A DNA stretch of 41,075 nt from an uncultured Bifidobacterium sp. Lineage in GTDB: Bacteria > Actinomycetota > Actinomycetes > S36-B12 > UBA5976. The stretch lies in the NCBI GenBank assembly GCA_964469855.1, contig CAYXYW010000001.1, positions 1 to 41,075 of the forward strand, given 5' to 3'. Of the stretch, positions 21,510 to 33,310 are shown piece after piece; the first letter of the stretch is position 1, and each line of letters opens with the position of its first letter. The notes beneath the pieces were generated by a model, which was not told the DNA's origin, searched no databases, and saw nothing but the letters and a program-made list of their open reading frames with translations. The position numbers and the translations under genes are program-made.

Positions 21510-23474
21510 TTACTTAATTACGGTAATTCGACCATCTGGTGCTGGCATTTGAGTAACTCTGCCAGCAGCTAGATCTGCTCGAAGTCCCTCAGCAAATACG
21601 TCAACCAACAAGTCACGAATTTGCTGTTTAGTTGGATCAAATTGGGTGTAGCCGTCACCGCCATAAACTAAGAAGTCAATAGTGGCAACTGAATAAACCG
21701 TGGCATCCTTTCCAATCGGATTGCCGTTGGTCCGAACTACATTTGAGATACGACTGCCAGCAGGCTTAGTGGTATCAACGGTGAATTTGAGACCAGCAAC
21801 ATGTGGGAACCTACCGTCAGTTGGCCAACGAGAAACGCCATTTTCTAATGCTGCCCATAGGTTTGCACCGGTTATGTTCACAATTGAAATGGAATTTCCA
21901 AATGGGAACACGGTGTAAGCATCACCAAGAGTTACATCGTATGGTCCGCTAGTTCCGGCACCTGGTCGCTTCAAGGTTTTGTCAGCTGGGGTGTAGGTAT
22001 TTGCTGGCAAAGTATCGCGAATACCGCCACCATTCATTAAGGCAAAGTCTGTTTTGTACTTTGCCAACAACAAATCAGCGGTATAGCTGCCAAGCGGTGT
22101 TTCGCCGGAACGCTCAACTGGTGGAGTGCCGCCGCGTGGGAATCGATCTGAAACAGTTCCGATCTTGACATCTAATTTTGCATTTAGTTGATCTTTGTAT
22201 TTCTTAACTAAATCTGCAACTGATGCATCGGTAAGTGTTGCTGGAACAGCTGCTTTCTTGACATGCTCAACAGATGCGCCAAGAACTTTGTTCGCTTCAG
22301 TATCAACGCAAACTTGAGTTCGGGTGTACTCCTGACCTGAGTTACGAGTCTGCGCAGTCAATCGATTTTTTACAACTGAGGCAAATGTTTGATGGCTGTG
22401 ACCACCGTAGACCACATCAACGCCAGTTAGTTGACCGGCATAATCAATTAGTTCGCCATTGGCTTTACCGTTTAGGTTTTGATTCCAACCCCAGTGAACC
22501 AGCGCGATCACCATGTCTGCGCCAGCAGCACGTGCTTTCTTAGCAGCAGAAACGACGCCGTTAACTTTGTTGGAAATAACAAGATCTTTTTTCTTGCCAG
22601 CAGCGGTGAAGCTCAAGTTTCCTGGGAAAACTTGATCAACTGTTTGTGAGGTGTTCATGCCCACCACGCCAATGTTGACGCCGTTTCGCTTGATGATCAC
22701 AAACGGCTTTGCCGCCTTCTTGCCACTCTTAAGTGGGCTTAGTGTGTTGTAGTTGCTTGCTACCCACTGGAAATTTGAGGCACCGATCATTTTTTGCAGA
22801 TGTGCAATATCGCGATCGTGTTCGTGATTTCCAAATACAGAAACATCAAACTTAATGGCATTCATTGCTTCAATAGTTGGAAGTTCTTCAAATTGCGATG
22901 AAATAGCTGGGGCAGCACCAATGTTGTCACCTGAAGAGAGGGTTACGGTTGGCTTAACCAATATTCGATCATTGGCCATTGCAGCTGCTAAACCAGCAGC
23001 GCCAATTGCAGAGCTGGACGCCTCAATTGCACCATGTAGGTCGCTTAGTTGCAGCACCTGCACACTCTTAATTGAGGCTGGGGCGAACTTCTTTACGTTG
23101 ATTGCAACACCATCGCTAGCCGCGGCTGACATGCCGTAGGCATTCACAGCGATTACCTCTGGCGCTAAATCATTTGTGCCTTTTAATACTGGCATGGTTG
23201 CTGAAGTTTTTCCAGCACCCACCATTACTGGACAGCTTCCTGGACCAGCTGTGACGATGTAGTTTGTCACTGGTGGATTGGCGGTAACTTTTTCCCAGCT
23301 AACTTTGATTCCACCATTGGTAGCGGCAGAACTAACAAAGACTGGAGCAGTCGGAGCTGAAAAAGTTTCAGCTGAATTTGCTGCAAGTGTGTTTACTACT
23401 AGGGAAGTAGCAGCCAGCGAAAGAGATGCCAATACTGAAATGAGCATGGCAAAACGGGATCTTTTGAATTCCAT
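21510..23474 (-). CDS. Secreted bifunctional metallophosphoesterase / 5'-nucleotidase with an N-terminal FN3-like domain
   Basis: The ORF is 654 aa with a signal peptide. An FN3-like segment (APVFVSSAATNGGIKVSWEKVTANPPVTNYIV) follows. Calcineurin-like motifs are DLHG, GDNIGA and GNHEHD. The C-terminal part is a 5'-nucleotidase substrate-binding domain. Confidence 0.85.
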   Translation of the reverse strand: MEFKRSRFAMLISVLASLSLAATSLVVNTLAANSAETFSAPTAPVFVSSAATNGGIKVSWEKVTANPPVTNYIVTAGPGSCPVMVGAGKTSATMPVLKGTNDLAPEVIAVNAYGMSAAASDGVAINVKKFAPASIKSVQVLQLSDLHGAIEASSSAIGAAGLAAAMANDRILVKPTVTLSSGDNIGAAPAISSQFEELPTIEAMNAIKFDVSVFGNHEHDRDIAHLQKMIGASNFQWVASNYNTLSPLKSGKKAAKPFVIIKRNGVNIGVVGMNTSQTVDQVFPGNLSFTAAGKKKDLVISNKVNGVVSAAKKARAAGADMVIALVHWGWNQNLNGKANGELIDYAGQLTGVDVVYGGHSHQTFASVVKNRLTAQTRNSGQEYTRTQVCVDTEANKVLGASVEHVKKAAVPATLTDASVADLVKKYKDQLNAKLDVKIGTVSDRFPRGGTPPVERSGETPLGSYTADLLLAKYKTDFALMNGGGIRDTLPANTYTPADKTLKRPGAGTSGPYDVTLGDAYTVFPFGNSISIVNITGANLWAALENGVSRWPTDGRFPHVAGLKFTVDTTKPAGSRISNVVRTNGNPIGKDATVYSVATIDFLVYGGDGYTQFDPTKQQIRDLLVDVFAEGLRADLAAGRVTQMPAPDGRITVIK

Positions 23475-23551: not shown

Positions 23552-23626
23552 TGGTGCCCCCAGCAGGATTCGAACCTGCGCGCACGGTTTAGGAAACCGA
23601 TGCTCTATCCCCTGAGCTATGGGGGC
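23552..23626 (-). tRNA. tRNA-Arg (anticodon CCT), 3' CCA encoded
   Basis: The reverse complement reads GCCCCCA TA GCTC AGGGGATA GAGC A TCGGT TTCCTAA ACCGT GCGC GCAGG TTCGAAT CCTGC TGGGGGC A CCA. It forms a full cloverleaf with a T-loop TTCGAAT. There is one U:U mismatch at the top of the anticodon stem. Total length is 75 nt. Confidence 0.93.
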
Positions 23627-23729
23627 GAACGGGTTCGCCGCCGCCGTATCCTATTGGGCAGCCAAAGGATGCAATATTCCCAATAAATCCATTACCGCCC
23701 GATACAGTTGTGCCAAAAGGATTGGTGCC

Positions 23730-24497
23730 GTGTTCTATTCTGCAGCGAAAAACGTGTTGTTTCTGAAACCACGAAAAGTGGCAGGAACTAGTTTTGAAAT
23801 CGCGCTATCGGTTACTGCCAGCGCACAAGACATAATCACGCCAATTTCGCTTGATGATGAATTAATTCGAATTGATCAAAAGGGTCAATTACCAGTTAAT
23901 TGGTCAAGACAGCCAGAACTTGAGGCTTCTTATGTTTCGTTAGTGCAACAGATACATCGAATGCGTCGCGCTGGAGTTGTGTCAGAAGAGTTAAAGCACA
24001 AACGACAACAATTGAAAGATTTGCTCCACATTAAAGGACATCGGTTGTATTACAACCACATCGTTCCAGATGAGATAAAACAAAACTTTACTGAAGAAAA
24101 ATTTGATAATGCAATAAAAGTAACCATTACTAGACATCCATATGAACAGCTAATCTCTCAGGCATATTGGTTACACCAAGGAAAGCAACGAAGAGCTTTA
24201 CCGATCTCACAAATAATTGATGAGTTACTTGTTGAACCTGCTCCTAATACACCGTATTATTTTGCAAACGATAAGAAGCTCTGTGATATCTACATCAAAA
24301 TGGAATCGTTTCAAGCAGATGTTATTAATTTAGAAAACCAATTGGGACTTAAAATCTGGCAATACATGCCAATGACTAAAAAAAGTTCCACCGGATCTAG
24401 ACCAAAAGCAACAGATATTCTGACTCACGAGCAGAAACTTCAAGTGCAGCAAAGATCGAAGTTAGAATTTGAGCACTTCGATTACGATCCGAATTAG
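23730..24497 (+). CDS. Sulfotransferase (family-2 / carbohydrate-sulfotransferase-like); the start is uncertain
   Basis: The 5'-PSB-like motif is FLKPRKVAGTSFE and the 3'-PB-like motif is TITRHPYEQLISQAYW. I start it at the GTG at 23730, 8 nt after AAGGA; GTG 23754 and TTG 23757 are also possible. The track start at 23619 overlaps the tRNA and is rejected. GC is noticeably low. Confidence 0.6.
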   Translation: MFYSAAKNVLFLKPRKVAGTSFEIALSVTASAQDIITPISLDDELIRIDQKGQLPVNWSRQPELEASYVSLVQQIHRMRRAGVVSEELKHKRQQLKDLLHIKGHRLYYNHIVPDEIKQNFTEEKFDNAIKVTITRHPYEQLISQAYWLHQGKQRRALPISQIIDELLVEPAPNTPYYFANDKKLCDIYIKMESFQADVINLENQLGLKIWQYMPMTKKSSTGSRPKATDILTHEQKLQVQQRSKLEFEHFDYDPN

Positions 24498-25270
24498 TTT
24501 TCTTGCTCTGGGCTATCTATTAGTAGTTCAGTTAGATCTTCCAAGCCGCTGGTGTATTGACCCAATGTGGTGCGAGCTGTATCGATCTGGTCTCTAATTG
24601 ATAAGTAGCCAATTTCTAGTGATTTGGCAACTGCAGCTGCTTCTCTTCGAATTTTCTCAATCTTTGTTCGTTCTCGAGCCAGTTCAGCAGAGATTTTTCC
24701 GCGAACATCATCCAATTTTTTCTGAGCTTGCGCGTTGGCATCAGCAATAATTTGCTCGGCTTCTTTAGCAACGGCATAACGCTTTTGCTCTAATTCTTTT
24801 CGGAGCGATTCCATCTCCGAGGCAACTTTTCGATCTGTTTCTGCCTTTATCCGAACTGATTGCTGCTCAAGTTGGTCGCGCTTAGTCTCGGCATCTGCGA
24901 CCATTTTAGTTGCCAGCGCTTGCGCTTCTTGAACTTTTGCCTCAGCATCTTTTCGCATTCGCTCGGTCTCTTTGCGAGATTCAGTCAATCGCTTTTCTAT
25001 TTCAGTTAATGCTTTTTGTTCGGCATCTTTTGTAGCTTTCACAATTGCAAGGGTGTGCTCACCAGCAAGTGCCACGATCTCTACTTCACTTAGTGAATAT
25101 AGATCGCGTCGTTTTTTTAAGTCATTAATCTCAGCGCGTAGTGCACTTATCTGTTCGGCAGCGGCAGCATCTAAGTCTTCGTTATGTGTGATGTCTTTTG
25201 GTGTATGCGACAGCCCCAAGCTGTCGGTCATGTAATTCACTAACCGCAGTCGGCCACGATTATTTGCCAT
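24494..25270 (-). CDS. Coiled-coil protein of unknown function (Ala/Glu/Lys-rich heptads)
   Basis: The ORF is 258 aa. The ATG at 25270 is preceded by GGAG. There is a long predicted coiled coil (..EAEQIIADANAQAQKKLDDVRGKISAELARERTKIEKIRREAAA..) and no TM segment or signal peptide. Confidence 0.6.
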   Translation of the reverse strand: MANNRGRLRLVNYMTDSLGLSHTPKDITHNEDLDAAAAEQISALRAEINDLKKRRDLYSLSEVEIVALAGEHTLAIVKATKDAEQKALTEIEKRLTESRKETERMRKDAEAKVQEAQALATKMVADAETKRDQLEQQSVRIKAETDRKVASEMESLRKELEQKRYAVAKEAEQIIADANAQAQKKLDDVRGKISAELARERTKIEKIRREAAAVAKSLEIGYLSIRDQIDTARTTLGQYTSGLEDLTELLIDSPEQEN

Positions 25271-25335: not shown

Positions 25336-26397
25336 CTAGGGGCGAAGCGAGGACAGCATCGTTTGTAGTTCAGTGGCAATCACAGCGGATGCCTCCCGGG
25401 TCCAGTGCACACCATCTGGCTGCCGCAACAGAATTCTTTGATTGTTGATGGTGGCACGCAGGCTTGGTTTGAGATCAGAGAACAGGTCCAGATATTTAAG
25501 CTCCGGAATCTGCAGCGAAGAATCAAGCAGACTTTGGTTGATTTGCTGATAACTTAAATTTCGACTCTTGTTGGAAACCACCGGCGGACCAGCCCAAACC
25601 ACATTTTTCACCTTATTGGCTGAGAATTCAGTTGTCACTAGCTGAACGCGTCTGGAATATTCATTTAGCCACTGTTCACTGCCGCGTGGGACGAGTTCAC
25701 CACCATTAACCATATTGACCGTGTCACTACCGCCAAGAATCATGATTACTAAATCTGGTTGGTATTTTGCAGTTAAGTCTCGCGCGTACTGGCCCCAGTC
25801 CAGCACATTTGGTTTAGTTAAACCTGAGCCATTCGCCCATTCAATGCGAACTACAAATCTGTCATCGCCAGCCATGAGCTTAACTAATTCTTGTCCGGCA
25901 AAAGTTGAAAGTGAATCACCAGTTACTAAGACGCGAATGGTTTTACCAACTTGTTCTGGGGTGAACTCAGCGGGATCCAAAATTGGTATCATCGATGTAA
26001 CGATGCCATCACCAGGGCGTGATGTGGGCTTAATCTTTTCTGACTCAACCGGAATAATCTCTGTTGGTGAAACATCTTGTGCAGCGATAGTTTCATCAAC
26101 TAATGAAATACCTTCTCGATCTCGATTTCTTACTCGATCAATTACACTTTCAATTGAACCTACGCCTGCACTTTCAGACAATCGCTTTATGAAGTCAGAA
26201 ACTGGAAGTGAGAGCGACCTAATTGGTCCAGGTTCGATGGCAAGCGCTGAGGTGTAAATGGCAGAAGCATTTACAAACCAGCTAGCCATTCCTACCAGCC
26301 ACACTGTGAATATCACACTTGCGGCATTACGAGATGCGCCTCGATATTGAACAATTAATCGATGGCCGACAGTTTCGCGTTTTGGTGTTGGGTTCAT
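25336..26397 (-). CDS. Membrane-anchored SGNH/GDSL-family hydrolase/acyltransferase (PatB/AlgJ/DltD-like partner of the MBOAT)
   Basis: The ORF is 353 aa with an N-terminal TM anchor (AASVIFTVWLVGMASWFV). Block I is VTGDSLS and block V is PDGVHWT (DxxH). The start lies 2 nt after the MBOAT stop. Confidence 0.75.
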   Translation of the reverse strand: MNPTPKRETVGHRLIVQYRGASRNAASVIFTVWLVGMASWFVNASAIYTSALAIEPGPIRSLSLPVSDFIKRLSESAGVGSIESVIDRVRNRDREGISLVDETIAAQDVSPTEIIPVESEKIKPTSRPGDGIVTSMIPILDPAEFTPEQVGKTIRVLVTGDSLSTFAGQELVKLMAGDDRFVVRIEWANGSGLTKPNVLDWGQYARDLTAKYQPDLVIMILGGSDTVNMVNGGELVPRGSEQWLNEYSRRVQLVTTEFSANKVKNVVWAGPPVVSNKSRNLSYQQINQSLLDSSLQIPELKYLDLFSDLKPSLRATINNQRILLRQPDGVHWTREASAVIATELQTMLSSLRP

Positions 26398-26399
26398 AA

Positions 26400-27806
26400 T
26401 CAGAATTGAAAATAGATAAAGGGGCTAACGCCCGTGCCGGATGTCAAGAGCATAACTAGTGCGGTTGCAATACCAACACCGATAGCTGCAAGTGGAACAG
26501 GAATTGCTCCAATTAGATCATTACTTCGCTGCGTTAATTTTGCCGGAAGATACTGACCAAATAGCCCAATAGCAATTAAAAATAAAACTAATGGGGATAC
26601 GGTAAGGGTTGCTTGATTAACTGAACTGAACATTTCACTAAACATACTCAATGCATCGGTAATTGTTTCAGATCTAAAGAAAATCCAAACTAAGTTCACG
26701 AAAATAAAAGTCAAGGCAACAGAAATCACATAAGGAAGTCGGAATTTGTAAGTCATTCTTAGTTGTCGCTCAATTGCTAAACCTAGACCATGTAGTAGTC
26801 CCCAAACAATGAATGTGACACTTGCACCATGCCAGAATCCACCAATTGCCATGGTTGCGATCAAATTAAATTTAGTTCGGTTCTCGCTTTTTTGATTTCC
26901 ACCTAATGAAACATACAGGTAGTCACGTAGGAATCGCGAAAGCGTCATATGCCATCTGCGCCAGAATTCCTGCAGACTGGCTGCTCGATAGGGCCGATCA
27001 AAGTTTTGTGGGAAGCGGAAGCCGAGCAGCATAGCTATACCAATTGCCATATCGGTGTAACCAGAAAAGTCACAATAAATCTGAACCCCAAATGCAAGAA
27101 CTGCAATCAAGATGTCCCAGGTGGAATACGCTGACGGAGCTCCGAATACTTGATCAACCGATAATCGCCCCAATTGGTCAGCAATAACAACTTTTTTTAT
27201 CAGGCCAGTGGCAATTAGCACTAGTGCTGGCGAGAGCGGAATTTCTCTTGGATTCCGTGGTGATTGAAGCTGTGGAATGAATTCGGACGGCCGCACAATA
27301 GGTCCGGCAACAAGTTGTGGGAAAAAAGTCAAGAACACTGAAAAATCTAAGAAATTAGCCGGGAGCATCTGCTCTCGATAAACATCCATCACGTAAGAGA
27401 TGGCTTGGAACGTATAAAACGAGATGCCAATTGGCAAAATTATTCGCAGTGCAAGCAGATTAGAGTCGCCACCAAATCCACCAAATAAATCATTAAAGGA
27501 CTCAACAAAGAAATTGAAGTACTTAAAGATACCCAGGATCAATAGGTCAATAAAGATGATAATTGCGAGCGAAATTGTCTTTGCCCGATGATTATTTCTT
27601 ACCTGATAAATTCTTATTGCAGCAAACTGATTTGCCACCACCATAAAGACAAGTAGCGCGACAAATCTAATGTCAGCCCAACCATAAAATACCAGCGATG
27701 CTAAAACGATAAATGGCTTCCAATATTTTGGAATTGGCATTAACAGCCAGCTAACTAAAATAACGATACTAAAAAACAACGCAAAGGTGAGCGTGGGAAA
27801 TGCCAT
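26400..27806 (-). CDS. MBOAT-family membrane O-acyltransferase (AlgI/PatA/DltB-like)
   Basis: The ORF is 468 aa and polytopic. The signature is SLQEFWRRWHMTLSRFLRDYLYVSLGGN, followed by GGFWHGAS with the conserved His. Confidence 0.88.
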   Translation of the reverse strand: MAFPTLTFALFFSIVILVSWLLMPIPKYWKPFIVLASLVFYGWADIRFVALLVFMVVANQFAAIRIYQVRNNHRAKTISLAIIIFIDLLILGIFKYFNFFVESFNDLFGGFGGDSNLLALRIILPIGISFYTFQAISYVMDVYREQMLPANFLDFSVFLTFFPQLVAGPIVRPSEFIPQLQSPRNPREIPLSPALVLIATGLIKKVVIADQLGRLSVDQVFGAPSAYSTWDILIAVLAFGVQIYCDFSGYTDMAIGIAMLLGFRFPQNFDRPYRAASLQEFWRRWHMTLSRFLRDYLYVSLGGNQKSENRTKFNLIATMAIGGFWHGASVTFIVWGLLHGLGLAIERQLRMTYKFRLPYVISVALTFIFVNLVWIFFRSETITDALSMFSEMFSSVNQATLTVSPLVLFLIAIGLFGQYLPAKLTQRSNDLIGAIPVPLAAIGVGIATALVMLLTSGTGVSPFIYFQF

Positions 27807-27818
27807 TAGTCAGTTTCC

Positions 27819-28835
27819 CTACTTGCTTATCTTCTCTTTTGTGACGCTAACTTCGGCATCACTGGCATAAATGAACCAAACTTGACCAGACTTCAACGCA
27901 ACATTTTCACCTTGATATGAGAATGTCGGGAATTGATTATCTACCAACCGTTGCCATGTAACTGGCAAACTTTTACCGTCGCGAAACACGTACCCCTCGC
28001 CGGTGCCAGTCAATATTTGATCTGGCACATCTTTGCCATATGAATCCTTTAATCCAGATGCTTTAGTTTGAGTTATCTGAACTACCACTGTGGTTGGAGT
28101 GATTGATTGATTAGTTTCGGTATCCAGTGCAACTTCACCATCGAAATAAACTTCCCAGCCTCGACCTGGCAACCATTTAAATTCCGTATCACTAGCTGGA
28201 AAATCAATTAATACGCTCTCGGTTTTTTCAGCATCTGGATGGAACTTGCGGTCAAATTCAAATCCCTGAACTGCTTTGCTTACTTCACCTTTTTCTTGGG
28301 CTAATTCAATTAATCTAGTTGGATTAACCATCAAGTTATGTGGCGCATATCTAGGTGGTTCGCCTCTAAACCAACCATCCCCAGTCACTCGATTGGAAAT
28401 ATCGATAAAGGGCTCGGCATCTAACAACGGCAGTAATTTCGTTTGTGCACCTGAGTAACCAAACGCAGGCGCACCAAATTGACGTAGAATAGAAATATCA
28501 GTTGGCCGTGCTGATCTAATTGGACCAACGCTTGGTGGCAACTCAGTTGCATATACGGCAACTAAACGGGAGTAGCCACCTTCAATTTTTTCAACATAGA
28601 TTTGATCAGCTGCTGTTAAGCCTTGATGTGGACGCGCATTTTTCACATTGTCAATCTTTAGGATTAATACCGGTTTGTTCAACCCGAATTCACGCCCAGA
28701 TAGTGGACTTGGCTCAATTGGTCCAGTATCTATTGCTGGCGCCGGATCGTCACCAAATAATGAGTTAATCTGCCCAGCACACCCGGTCAATAGGGTCATT
28801 GCGATTAGGGCTACCGCCCACCGTTTGAGTGACAC
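27819..28835 (-). CDS. DUF3048-family lipoprotein
   Basis: The ORF is 338 aa with a GTG start and the lipobox LLTGC. The DUF3048-like core is KPVLILKIDNVKNARPHQGLTAADQIYVEKIEGGYSRLVAVY...VGPIRSARP. Confidence 0.7.
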   Translation of the reverse strand: MSLKRWAVALIAMTLLTGCAGQINSLFGDDPAPAIDTGPIEPSPLSGREFGLNKPVLILKIDNVKNARPHQGLTAADQIYVEKIEGGYSRLVAVYATELPPSVGPIRSARPTDISILRQFGAPAFGYSGAQTKLLPLLDAEPFIDISNRVTGDGWFRGEPPRYAPHNLMVNPTRLIELAQEKGEVSKAVQGFEFDRKFHPDAEKTESVLIDFPASDTEFKWLPGRGWEVYFDGEVALDTETNQSITPTTVVVQITQTKASGLKDSYGKDVPDQILTGTGEGYVFRDGKSLPVTWQRLVDNQFPTFSYQGENVALKSGQVWFIYASDAEVSVTKEKISK

Positions 28836-28849
28836 GAGACGGGATTAAA

Positions 28850-29992
28850 TCACACTATGTTGCGCCAGTGTCGAATCATGTAACCGAAACATGCAATACT
28901 CACTAGCAATACAGGAGCCAGCAGCATAGGTAGCACTTCGGCGCCAAATCGTTCCAATAAGAATCCGGCGGCAGGTGGCAAAATCAGCGCCCCAGTCATT
29001 GCTGCCAGTAGTAGCAGTGTGGTGGCCAGTGGATCACCAGGAGTTCGGGCCGCTATCCAGTCTGAGGCGGCAGCAAAAACTGGTCCAATCAAAAGTCCCA
29101 TTAACGCAATTCCATATGGTGCAAAATCTGGTAGCGCAATGGCAGACAGCACCACTGGAAAAGCTAAACCAACTGAGCCGAGCAACAGATTTTCAGCTGA
29201 TACTTTGTGGGAGAGCGGAGTTGCCACTATTCGACCAATGGTGAACATCAAATAAAACAACGCACCACTGATTGCGCCTGATTCAAGTGAGCCAGTTCGC
29301 TCTTGCATTAACGTTGGTAACCAAGATCCGGCAGAAACTTCTAAGCCAACATAAAACGCAATGCCAATAAAGAATATAGTTAACATCGGCTTATTACGAA
29401 CTACTTGAATTTGTTGCGAATTAACTTCCACGCCCCAATTAAGTCCACTAAGTAATAGCAAGGCAAGCGCAGCAATTACTACGGTTGTAATCATAATATT
29501 TGGTAAGTATTCAGCTGTAAGAATTGCAACTAATAGCGGTCCTAAAATTGCACCAATACCAAAAACTGCGTTTGAAAAATTGATCTTTACGCTACTTCGA
29601 TTATCTGATCTGGTAATCGCTTGAATCAGTCCAACATCTAGCACGCCAAAACCAAATCCAGCAAAAAAAGCGGCAGCTAATACGTAACCAAATTCAGGAG
29701 AAAGTACGATGCCGGAAAAACCAATTCCAAATGCAATTATCCCTAGTCGAATAAACCACAATATAGTTTTAGTTCTTACCAATAATTGAGTTAATAGGAT
29801 TCCAGATAACGCGCCAGCGTTTAGGACAAACAGTGTTATGCCAACTGTTCCAATACCAAGGTCATGCTTATCAGCAAGCCATGGCAGCACCGGACCCCAT
29901 CCGCCCGAAGTTAAGCCAAGCGAGGCGAATATTGCACTTGCGCCAACATAGCTTTTGGTTGAAACTTCCCGAGGCGAAATTACATTAGTCAT
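28850..29992 (-). CDS. MFS transporter (about 12 TM)
   Basis: The ORF is 380 aa and hydrophobic throughout. It has two six-helix halves around a central loop (ITRSDNRSSVKINF). No clear RBS precedes the ATG at 29992. Confidence 0.7.
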   Translation of the reverse strand: MTNVISPREVSTKSYVGASAIFASLGLTSGGWGPVLPWLADKHDLGIGTVGITLFVLNAGALSGILLTQLLVRTKTILWFIRLGIIAFGIGFSGIVLSPEFGYVLAAAFFAGFGFGVLDVGLIQAITRSDNRSSVKINFSNAVFGIGAILGPLLVAILTAEYLPNIMITTVVIAALALLLLSGLNWGVEVNSQQIQVVRNKPMLTIFFIGIAFYVGLEVSAGSWLPTLMQERTGSLESGAISGALFYLMFTIGRIVATPLSHKVSAENLLLGSVGLAFPVVLSAIALPDFAPYGIALMGLLIGPVFAAASDWIAARTPGDPLATTLLLLAAMTGALILPPAAGFLLERFGAEVLPMLLAPVLLVSIACFGYMIRHWRNIV

Positions 29993-32422: not shown

Positions 32423-33310
32423 ATGGCGGTCCGAAAAGCAGTTTTGCCCGTAGCTGGCATGGGAACTCGGTTCTTGCCTGCTACTAAAGCAACACCAAAA
32501 GAGATGTTGCCGATTGTGGATCGTCCAGTTATTCAATACGTAGTTGAAGAGGCAGTAGCCGCTGGCATCTCAGATGTACTTTTTGTCACCGGTCGAGCGA
32601 AGCGAGCGCTTGAGGATCATTTTGATTACAACGGCGAATTAGAAAAAATGCTGCAGGATCGTCAGGATTTAGAAAAGTTGTCTGCGGTTCGAGGTCCAGC
32701 GCAATTAGCTCAAATTCATTATGCGCGACAAGGCACACCAGCAGGATTAGGTCATGCGGTGTTGTGCGCTAAAGCGCATGTTGGTGATGAAACTTTTGCT
32801 GTACTGCTTGGCGATGAAATTGTTCCAGCTGAAAATGATGTGTTAAAGCAAATGTTTTCAGTTTGGGAGAAATTTGGTGGTTCAGTCTTACTGTTAAAGC
32901 GAATGCCAAAGTCTGAAATATCTCGATATGGCGTTGCAGCAGTAAAACCAACAACTCATGACAATATTGTTGAGATTACTGATTTAGTAGAAAAGCCTGA
33001 TGCGGCAGATGCACCCAGCGATTTAGCAGTGATGGGTCGATACGTGTTAGATCCAGCAATATTTAGCATTTTAGAAAATACTAAACCTGGCAAAGGTGGC
33101 GAGATTCAATAAACTGATGCGCTTAAGGTGCTTGCAGCCGCTAAAGATTCTTCAGCAGGGAAAGTTCACGGTTTGATTTATGAAGGTGAGCGATTCGATA
33201 CTGGTGAGATTCTTGGCTATATGACAACAGTTGTTGAGATGGCAGCGCGCAGATCAGATATTGGTGCTGAGTTTAAGTCTTGGCTAACTAATTTTGTCAA
33301 AGGTCTTTAA
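32423..33310 (+). pseudogene. galU: UTP--glucose-1-phosphate uridylyltransferase interrupted by one in-frame TAA (33110-33112)
   Basis: The N-terminal ORF begins VLPVAGMGTRFLPATKATPKEMLP and ends ...KPGKGGEIQ*. The same frame then continues TDALKVLAAAK...ERFDTGEILGY...VKGL*. The stop occupies the Leu position of the conserved GGEIQLTD motif. The sequence alone cannot tell whether this is a real pseudogene, a split gene or a base-call error. Confidence 0.85.

Follow-up and report, generated by a model that had tools for sequence, protein, structure and literature searches.

Do the four closely packed minus-strand genes at positions 25,336 to 29,992 of this DNA make up a single undescribed system for extracytoplasmic O-acylation, as an initial annotation had proposed, or does the run place a relay of a known type beside neighbors with another role? 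The genes lie in a 41,075-nt window (the whole stretch of DNA that was analyzed) from a streamlined, densely packed genome of freshwater acI Actinobacteria (Ca. Nanopelagicales). We favor, with a probability of roughly 0.65, a reading with two separable modules: a self-sufficient O-acetyl relay of the PatA/PatB type, formed by the MBOAT and the DUF459 protein, and an independent pair of MFS and DUF3048 proteins. The genes of the run, and a candidate boundary upstream of them, are the following.

28850..29992, minus strand: MFS transporter, 380 aa, which heads the run; Pfam MFS_1
27819..28835, minus strand: DUF3048 (YerB-family) lipoprotein, 338 aa, GTG start; Pfam PF11258 and PF17479
26400..27806, minus strand: MBOAT acyltransferase, PatA-like, 468 aa; Pfam PF03062
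25336..26397, minus strand: SGNH protein, DUF459/PatB family, 353 aa, predicted to be membrane anchored; Pfam PF04311
30028..30044, minus strand: hairpin resembling a terminator, T-rich at its tail, in the gap that separates the mscL stop from the MFS start; from a consensus scan

The coordinates of this run and its intergenic gaps of 14, 12, and 2 nt agree with the ORF list, as the initial annotation had claimed. Gaps of this size are the norm in this genome: the same-strand neighbor pairs of the window (n = 26) have a median gap of 13 nt, with 15 of the 26 at 20 nt or less, the coding density is ca. 96%, and mscL and its neighbor, which are unrelated to the acyl genes, are separated by 18 nt. 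The spacing thus backs a probable co-transcription of the four genes, which the 12 nt between the DUF3048 and MBOAT genes also makes likely, but says little about a common function. The hairpin probably bounds the transcription unit on its upstream side, although such hairpins come from a consensus scan only and are as numerous as expected by chance.

The assignment of the two acyl genes depends on a few short motifs and residues.

26403..26420, minus strand: FIYFQF hexapeptide at the MBOAT C terminus, an FxYxxF acyl-shuttle motif; Tyr465 at 26412-26414
25912-25914, minus strand: Ser162 of the SGNH triad, in GDS160-162, conserved in the alignment
25414-25416, minus strand: Asp328 of the SGNH triad, in D328-G-V-H331, conserved in the alignment
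25405-25407, minus strand: His331 of the SGNH triad, in D328-G-V-H331, conserved in the alignment

The MBOAT protein matches its Pfam family (PF03062) with 111.7 bits and is homologous to the solved DltB (E value of 1e-31), with its catalytic His326 (26829-26831) aligned to the catalytic His336 of DltB. Outside the DltB-aligned core, the TM scan places two additional C-terminal helices within residues ca. 399-455 (segments 399-417 and 437-455), and the protein finishes in the hexapeptide, which as F[IL]Y..F is the C-terminal end of all the MBOAT relatives compared (124/124). In PatA, the FxYxxF motif is an acetyl-tyrosine shuttle that is auto-acetylated from acetyl-CoA (bioRxiv 10.1101/2024.09.17.613324). 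Judged by its sequence, the protein is a PatA-type MBOAT in its profile, catalytic His, C-terminal hexapeptide, and adjoining SGNH gene.

In the SGNH protein, a linker joins an N-terminal helix (ca. 25-52) to the SGNH domain (155-344). The helix is moderately hydrophobic, with a Kyte-Doolittle peak of 1.59, just under the set threshold of 1.6, and it appears at ca. 25-52 in the AlphaFold model as well. Residues 155-344 reach 115.5 bits with PF04311 (DUF459), for which the gathering score is 27.2, and the Pfam match to Lipase_GDSL is sub-threshold; DUF459 is the PatB family (PMC9487903). The only solved sequence relatives found with phmmer against the PDB, at ca. 2e-8, are PatB and Cj0610c/8gr2, and the identity to solved PatB proteins is 22 to 23%. 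Foldseek gave the same picture with an AF2 model of moderate quality (pLDDT of ca. 80 to 87 in the domain and 66 overall), as the best five matches were all PatB (7tjb, 8tlb, 7trr, 8gr2, and 7tlv; E values of 6e-10 to 6e-9, TM scores of 0.65 to 0.74 on the target), and the next match beyond PatB was found at 2.6e-4, a step in E value of ca. 10^5 to other SGNH folds. The modeled fold is thus closer to solved PatB than to other SGNH families, and the partner families AlgX and DHHW are absent from the Pfam matches, the PDB sequence matches, and the 50 Foldseek matches listed. The NCBIfam PatB equivalog NF045704 is matched with just 39.6 bits (cut-off of 580), and the motif of block III carries a Ser in place of Asn (GGSD). 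On these comparisons, we class the protein as a member of the PatB/DUF459 family and not as an orthologue of the Gram-negative PatB. The system can hardly be called undescribed, as the SGNH protein belongs to DUF459/PatB by Pfam, by its match to solved sequences, and by the fold search, and the MBOAT carries the PatA-type FxYxxF motif.

The proposal that an MBOAT and a membrane-anchored extracytoplasmic SGNH protein act together as a trans-membrane acyl relay is supported by the catalytic residues, the hexapeptide, and the DUF459 assignment. In such a relay, the MBOAT would pick up acetyl from cytoplasmic acetyl-CoA via His326, and Tyr465 in the hexapeptide would then be auto-acetylated at the outer face of the membrane. 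The acetyl would pass to Ser162 of the membrane-tethered SGNH protein, within the triad Ser162/Asp328/His331 of SGNH blocks I and V, which would hand it to a hydroxyl on an extracytoplasmic glycan. The family memberships, the catalytic residues and motif, and the gene order with its phylogenetic distribution are observations, whereas we infer the donor, the acceptor, and the sequence of transfers, with the transfer steps modeled on the PatAB mechanism. Analogy with the family points to peptidoglycan, at O-6 of MurNAc, as the most probable acceptor, and another wall glycan is possible because a second MBOAT-DUF459 pair exists elsewhere in the Nanopelagicales.

As the initial annotation had noted, neither DltA/DltC nor an alginate or cellulose synthase is found among the genes scanned in the 41-kb window (all but three short or overlapping ORFs), and the same scan detected no Ape-like esterase. 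The missing carrier pair DltA/DltC would be explained by an acetyl-CoA/acetyl-tyrosine mechanism as in PatAB (bioRxiv 10.1101/2024.09.17.613324). By the same analogy, the relay should need no carrier protein or additional relay protein, and no donor transporter either, because the MBOAT itself would use acetyl-CoA on the cytoplasmic side. The MFS and DUF3048 genes may be co-transcribed with the relay genes and would not be required for the relay.

The separation into modules is best seen by comparing the locus among relatives, where two further genes come into play.

24494..25270, minus strand: coiled-coil protein, 258 aa, with neither a family nor a TM segment, 65 nt downstream of the SGNH gene
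23754..24497, plus strand: ORF247, possible sulfotransferase, 247 aa, convergent; the longest ORF starts at 23619

In 8/8 fetched loci of the clade (L001, L002, L007, and L092-L096), the genes keep the order MFS-DUF3048-MBOAT-DUF459, but the co-occurrence of the four genes is limited to these close relatives within one narrow clade of Nanopelagicales, with DUF3048 identities of at least 62%. The two loci of a sister lineage (L003 and L097; DUF3048 identity of 53%) have the same synteny as the window from mscL to citrate synthase and keep MFS-DUF3048, and what they are missing, as a block, is the MBOAT, DUF459, coiled-coil, and ORF247 genes. On the other side, none of the MBOAT-DUF459 pairs at L008, L010, and L099 is accompanied by a neighboring DUF3048, MFS, coiled-coil, or ORF247 gene. 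These pairs resemble that of the window in consisting of two genes and in their C-terminal motif, but the MBOAT is ca. 45 to 60% identical, the SGNH protein 26 to 37%, and the chromosomal context is different. Two of them represent a second, more widespread Nanopelagicales pair in a conserved context, the etfAB-MBOAT-DUF459-iscS-mnmA-ligA locus (L008 and L010). The pair in the window is an accessory, clade-restricted copy.

The joint gain or loss of the MBOAT, DUF459, coiled-coil, and ORF247 genes could also be read as marking these four as the unit, one that decorates a lineage-specific wall glycan or glycolipid other than peptidoglycan and leaves any peptidoglycan O-acetylation to the etf-linked pair. 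The conserved context of the latter and its low SGNH identity to the window type speak in favor of this, as do the PAPS-loop-like motifs of ORF247 and its weak match to Sulfotransfer_2 (E value of 0.03). The coiled-coil gene and ORF247 are found together at L001, L002, L007, and L093-L096, and orthologues of ORF247 start as MLFLKPRKVAGTSF. However, the sulfotransferase score is 14.9 bits, under the cut-off of 22, the profile search with ORF247 against the PDB gave no match, and ORF247 is encoded on the opposite strand. The Pfam and NCBIfam matches of the coiled-coil protein are of low complexity only, and the scan of window genes turned up neither a glycan synthase nor a glycosyltransferase. 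We consider this alternative unlikely, although it is the most probable of the rival readings.

A little less probable is the four-component system of the initial annotation, in which the DUF3048 lipoprotein would bind the acceptor or serve in the relay, and the substrate or the donor would be moved by the MFS protein. The identity of the lipoprotein itself is clear: it has both domains (97.3 bits for the N domain and 63.1 for the C domain in Pfam), a lipobox (L-T-G-C, Cys19 at 28779-28781), and the fold of YerB, as its sequence matches PDB 2psb with an E value of 9.7e-12 and its AF2 model (pLDDT of 91.6) matched 2psb alone in Foldseek (E value of 6.5e-24, TM score of 0.87 on the target). It shares its Pfam domains, fold, and lipoprotein nature with the Bacillus subtilis YerB, but the identity between them is 19%. 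The family was still without an assigned function as of 2026 (PMC13068155). The extracytoplasmic location implied by the lipobox, the putative site PIRSAR (residues 105 to 110, invariant across the alignment), and the constant gene order and gaps in the eight clade loci all fit a role in acylation. Accessory periplasmic proteins are part of the alginate and cellulose acetylation relays, and AlgF and WssF/G are known extracytoplasmic accessories of such MBOAT-SGNH systems. Against a four-component system, the co-occurrence does not reach beyond one shallow clade, the window DUF459 type makes up a single cluster at 50% identity when 2,550 representative relatives are grouped, and unrelated flanking genes are equally syntenic and equally tight. 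A donor transporter would also be superfluous, acetyl-CoA being cytoplasmic.

The survey of DUF3048 neighborhoods weighs most here. An association with MBOAT/SGNH genes beyond this genome was borne out in the close relatives, but it did not extend further, as 80 other DUF3048 loci from actinobacteria, a sample biased towards Streptomyces, contain neither MBOAT nor DUF459 genes nor related MFS genes within 8 kb, and the genes found there are assorted housekeeping ones; at DUF3048 loci L004, L005, and L100, the MBOAT, DUF459, and related MFS genes are again missing. With the sister lineage that carries MFS-DUF3048 alone and 0/3 associations in the other MBOAT-DUF459 loci, the claim that the two genes are locked to the pair is not supported. 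DUF3048 and MFS thus behave as incidental neighbors, as the initial annotation had foreseen for the case of its idea failing, but the other half of that scenario, a pair grouping firmly with characterized PatA/PatB, applies only in the sense of a distant kinship to the Gram-negative PatB. There is a slim chance, slighter again than that of the four-component system, that DUF3048, with or without the MFS protein, was recruited in one acI lineage to assist the PatAB-like relay, maybe presenting the acceptor glycan like AlgF or WssF/G. Such a recruitment would define a Gram-positive variant of MBOAT-SGNH acylation and offer the first clue to what the widespread YerB/DUF3048 family does, with its unique fold and conserved PIRSAR site.

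That the SGNH protein is instead a hydrolase (an O-acetyl esterase or lipase), or that the acyl group of the pair is not acetyl, is very improbable: the SGNH fold is for the most part hydrolytic, the depositors of PDB 8gr2, which is the same C. jejuni protein, named it a GDSL-family esterase, and block III has Ser in place of Asn, but the gene lies 2 nt from an MBOAT with an acyl-shuttle motif and the characterized members of DUF459 are transferases.

The locus provides neither a new acylation mechanism nor a function for DUF3048. If the two-module reading is right, abundant freshwater acI Actinobacteria would O-acetylate a wall polymer by a split PatA/PatB machinery of the Gram-negative type, which would add to or replace the OatA-type fusion, and some acI lineages would have an additional, divergent MBOAT-DUF459 copy. 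This would matter for how a dominant group of lake bacterioplankton resists lysozyme and grazers and for how phages adsorb to it, and would correct the impression given by a 2022 review that DUF459/PatB is only Gram negative (PMC9487903).

Among known systems, the MFS-DUF3048 pair recalls LprG-Rv1410 of mycobacteria, likewise a two-gene unit of an actinobacterial lipoprotein and an MFS protein (PMC6519032, PMC10576003). The analogy is architectural only, as the gene order is reversed and homology is not detectable; the window MFS protein (61.8 bits to MFS_1) matched no solved MFS structure at an E value of ≤1. The D-alanylation of teichoic acids by Dlt shares with the window a homologous MBOAT core and the acyl-tyrosine shuttle, but its motif is on the microprotein DltX and is fused to the MBOAT here. 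A Dlt system was rejected for this locus, as the DltB equivalog TIGR04091 gives 174.8 bits, under the cut-off of 375, and DltA, DltC, DltD, and DltX are absent among the window genes scanned. The AlgI/AlgJ/AlgF/AlgX, WssH/WssI, and PatA1/PatB1 systems have the same MBOAT-SGNH relay logic and C-terminal FxYxxF, some with additional extracytoplasmic accessory proteins, but the SGNH proteins they pair with come from other families (AlgX and DHHW), and the window has no polymer synthase genes nearby. The differences from the PatA/PatB of Neisseria gonorrhoeae and Campylobacter jejuni include the actinobacterial host and the block III Ser, and the ape1 of the Gram-negative OAP cluster (patA-patB-ape1), a second SGNH, or an esterase was not found among the window genes scanned. 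Both systems have in common adjoining genes, the MBOAT catalytic His, the C-terminal FxYxxF, and no carrier protein, and PatB, the closest solved structure, has the layout that we predict for the SGNH protein of the window, in which a TM helix at the N terminus is followed by a linker and by a DUF459 domain that carries the Ser-His-Asp triad.

The MBOAT and SGNH genes of this region probably encode a self-sufficient O-acetyl relay of the PatA/PatB type, with the MFS and DUF3048 genes as a separable neighbour pair, a reading to which we assign a probability of roughly 0.65. The initial annotation described four tightly packed minus-strand genes, and the ORF listing confirms their coordinates as well as the gaps of 14, 12 and 2 nt between the MFS, DUF3048, MBOAT and SGNH ORFs.

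Genes of the four-gene run, in order of transcription
28850-29992, (-), MFS gene, 380 aa; Pfam MFS_1
27819-28835, (-), DUF3048 lipoprotein gene, 338 aa; Pfam DUF3048 N and C domains
26400-27806, (-), MBOAT gene, 468 aa; Pfam MBOAT
25336-26397, (-), SGNH gene, 353 aa; Pfam DUF459

As the gaps are tight and the interval between mscL and the MFS gene holds a terminator-like hairpin, the run is probably one transcription unit. The same gaps are weak evidence of shared function, since the genome is compact (coding share of the window about 96%) and such spacing is not special in the window, where same-strand neighbours have a median gap of 13 nt and 15 of 26 pairs lie within 20 nt. The host belongs to Candidatus Nanopelagicales, the acI Actinomycetota of fresh water, going by the source names that accompany close homologues. 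The flanking genes are of the housekeeping type, with mscL, an RcpC-like gene, a zinc-ribbon gene, two crcB, 5-FTHF cyclo-ligase, galU, metG, tatD and ksgA on one side and 5'-nucleotidase, citrate synthase, a two-component system and transhydrogenase on the other. Of the genes scanned in the window, none was identified as a polymer synthase, a Dlt gene, a further SGNH gene or an esterase. The galU-like UTP-glucose-1-phosphate uridylyltransferase gene, 32423-33310 (+), has an in-frame TAA stop at 33110-33112 (GEIQ*TDALK, versus GEIQLTDALK, with Leu, in L001, an 85%-related locus); the frame 3' of it still matches the L001 relative up to the normal stop codon, and the TAA reflects either a nonsense mutation or an error in sequencing.

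The SGNH domain belongs to PF04311 (DUF459, 115.5 bits in Pfam), which a 2022 review of the SGNH family equates with the PatB peptidoglycan O-acetyltransferase family (PMC9487903), and the only solved relatives in the PDB sequence search are PatB of N. gonorrhoeae and C. jejuni (about 2e-8). When the AlphaFold model (SGNH domain pLDDT about 80-87) served as Foldseek query, five PatB entries ranked first, with E values of 6e-10 to 6e-9 and TM-scores of 0.65-0.74 on the target, with other SGNH folds trailing by about five orders of magnitude in E value. AlgJ/AlgX, PatB1, DltD and OatA domains were absent from the Pfam matches, the PDB sequence matches and the 50 Foldseek matches listed. The protein begins with a single moderately hydrophobic helix (approximately residues 25-52) and a linker of about 100 residues, and it has the conserved catalytic blocks, GDS in block I (Ser162) and Asp328 plus His331 in block V. 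As the NCBIfam PatB profile gives 39.6 bits against a cut-off of 580, the SGNH/MBOAT pair is, judged by sequence, not orthologous to characterised PatB. Among 2,550 relatives found at E 1e-3 or better in 1.84 billion representatives, the DUF459 type of the window makes up a single 50%-identity cluster, and the nearest relative outside that cluster is only 27-40% identical.

The MBOAT protein aligns to solved DltB (1e-31), with His326 in the column of DltB His336, and its DltB equivalog score of 175 bits is well under the cut-off of 375. Beyond the DltB-aligned core it has two more TM segments and ends exactly in FIYFQF; an F[IL]Y..F terminus is present in all 124 related MBOATs aligned. PatA has been described to auto-acetylate the Tyr of an FxYxxF motif from acetyl-CoA, which requires a conserved His, while PatB, in which a dispensable linker joins an N-terminal TM helix to the DUF459 domain, takes the acetyl group from the acetylated hexapeptide and hands it to a peptidoglycan mimic (preprint 10.1101/2024.09.17.613324, 2024). 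By this scheme, acetyl would move from acetyl-CoA to Tyr465 of the MBOAT protein in a His326-dependent step, then to Ser162 of the SGNH protein, and finally to a hydroxyl of a glycan, the acceptor most likely being peptidoglycan or another wall glycan. Action on a non-peptidoglycan acceptor, by a variable block in which these two genes are joined by a coiled-coil gene and by ORF247, a convergent gene of 247 aa, is an unlikely alternative.

The initial annotation had proposed a candidate undescribed system with DUF3048 and the MFS as parts, and the neighbourhood survey that it suggested does not support this. The order MFS-DUF3048-MBOAT-DUF459 was found in eight fetched loci of one clade (L001, L002, L007 and L092-L096), in which DUF3048 is 62-96% identical to that of the window and the coiled-coil gene and ORF247 then follow wherever the contig is long enough; six further short contigs, matched by their lengths, appear to carry DUF3048 together with a homologue of MBOAT or DUF459. 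The sister lineage is represented by L003 and L097 (DUF3048 53% identical), which share the mscL...5'-nucleotidase/citrate synthase synteny of the window and retain MFS-DUF3048 without MBOAT, DUF459, coiled-coil gene or ORF247, and no MBOAT or DUF459 remnants were detected in them by tblastn. Within 8 kb of DUF3048 (36-43% identity), 80 genome loci contain neither MBOAT nor DUF459 nor a related MFS; these loci, the 80 best among at least 569, sample few independent lineages, as about 66 of them are from Streptomyces. This set, obtained with the narrower DUF3048 alignment A2 as seed because A1 (24 sequences) was too diverse, spans Streptomyces, Nonomuraea, Streptosporangium, Actinopolymorpha, a Bifidobacterium MAG, and Nanopelagicales and other MAGs; the DUF3048 neighbours checked were NIF3, PdxS, ArgRS, LysA, TrmB, PurA and P450. 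The metagenome scan yielded only six loci. MBOAT, DUF459 and a related MFS are likewise absent from three more DUF3048 contexts (L004, L005/L006 and L100/L101), and neither DUF3048 nor MFS lies beside the MBOAT-DUF459 pairs of three other loci (L008, L010 and L099).

In the loci surveyed, DUF3048 co-occurs with MBOAT/SGNH in close relatives only. A true four-component MFS/DUF3048/MBOAT/SGNH system would fit the constant gene order inside the clade, but the link of DUF3048 to the pair vanishes beyond it, and we consider such a system quite unlikely; recruitment of DUF3048 as an accessory to the relay in this clade appears very unlikely. The simplest reading is one of two modules, a resident MFS-DUF3048 pair and the variable four-gene block, gained or lost once beside it. 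GC and GC3 of the block fall inside the range of the window, with no compositional sign of horizontal transfer, and as remnants are also lacking in the sister lineage, gain versus loss is not polarised.

Within the block, the coiled-coil gene, 24494-25270 (-), follows the SGNH gene after 65 nt and codes for a cytoplasmic protein of 258 aa with no family. ORF247, 23619-24497 (+), with GTG 23754 as the likely true start, converges on it with a 4-nt overlap of the 3' ends; its 247-aa product has no family, no PDB relative in a profile search, PAPS-loop-like motifs (KPRKVAGTSF and RHPYEQLISQAYW) and a sub-threshold Sulfotransfer_2 match (E 0.03). Both genes co-vary with MBOAT-DUF459 across related loci. 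A secreted 654-aa 5'-nucleotidase/metallophosphoesterase, 21510-23474 (-), extended at its N terminus by about 130 residues, adjoins the block position in the window, L095, L003 and L097. As it is absent in L001 and L007, gene content varies at this position, which makes it a small hotspot.

The DUF3048 protein has an LTGC lipobox (Cys19) and a confident model (pLDDT 91.6), whose sole PDB fold match is B. subtilis YerB (2psb), so the fold search gave no lead to function; a whole-word literature search found no published function for the YerB/DUF3048 family. P-I-R-S-A-R (residues 105-110, window 28506-28523 (-)) is invariant down to 22% identity, and D77, R90, W294 and R296 are conserved alongside it. 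The invariant motif and the few charged or aromatic invariant residues outside it suggest a putative binding or active site. In L005 (6282-8786), a DUF3048 gene (product 35% identical to that of the window) immediately follows the gene for a LytR-CpsA-Psr (LCP) ligase and precedes an SsgA-like gene, a cell-wall-related setting not seen at the other loci checked. The MFS protein matches the generic MFS_1 profile only, and the PDB search returned no solved MFS relative, just one spurious carboxypeptidase match.

A second, more widespread MBOAT-DUF459 pair occurs in Nanopelagicales and related MAGs, between etfAB and iscS-mnmA-ligA (L008 6479-9137, L010 5100-7872), which suggests that PatAB-type pairs occupy a conserved locus in some Actinomycetota; the 2022 review lists DUF459 as Gram-negative-only (PMC9487903). 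In a neighbour-joining tree of the 124 MBOATs, the branch of the window clade is long (distance about 0.48) and the clade has no clear sister, so the tree cannot show that it arose when the etf-linked pair was duplicated. An unrelated metagenomic locus (L099, 3682-8424) has another layout of the module, in which MBOAT is followed by an ORF of 108 aa and a short DUF459 protein of 230 aa, with a second DUF459 gene (395 aa) upstream.

We give hardly any weight to a hydrolase role of the SGNH protein or to transfer of a different acyl group by the pair. Among known systems, the actinobacterial lipoprotein and MFS operon LprG-Rv1410 (PMC6519032, PMC10576003) resembles the MFS-DUF3048 pair in architecture only. 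For the proposed O-acetyl relay the closest comparison is PatA/PatB, as the sequence features described in the preprint (10.1101/2024.09.17.613324) are also present in the window pair, the N-terminal TM helix as a putative one, which would account for the absence of a DltA/DltC carrier and make a donor transporter unnecessary. The difference is that the window pair is divergent, actinobacterial and non-orthologous to characterised PatB; by its sequence it is a newcomer to the known MBOAT-SGNH (PatAB) kind, with a putative acceptor.
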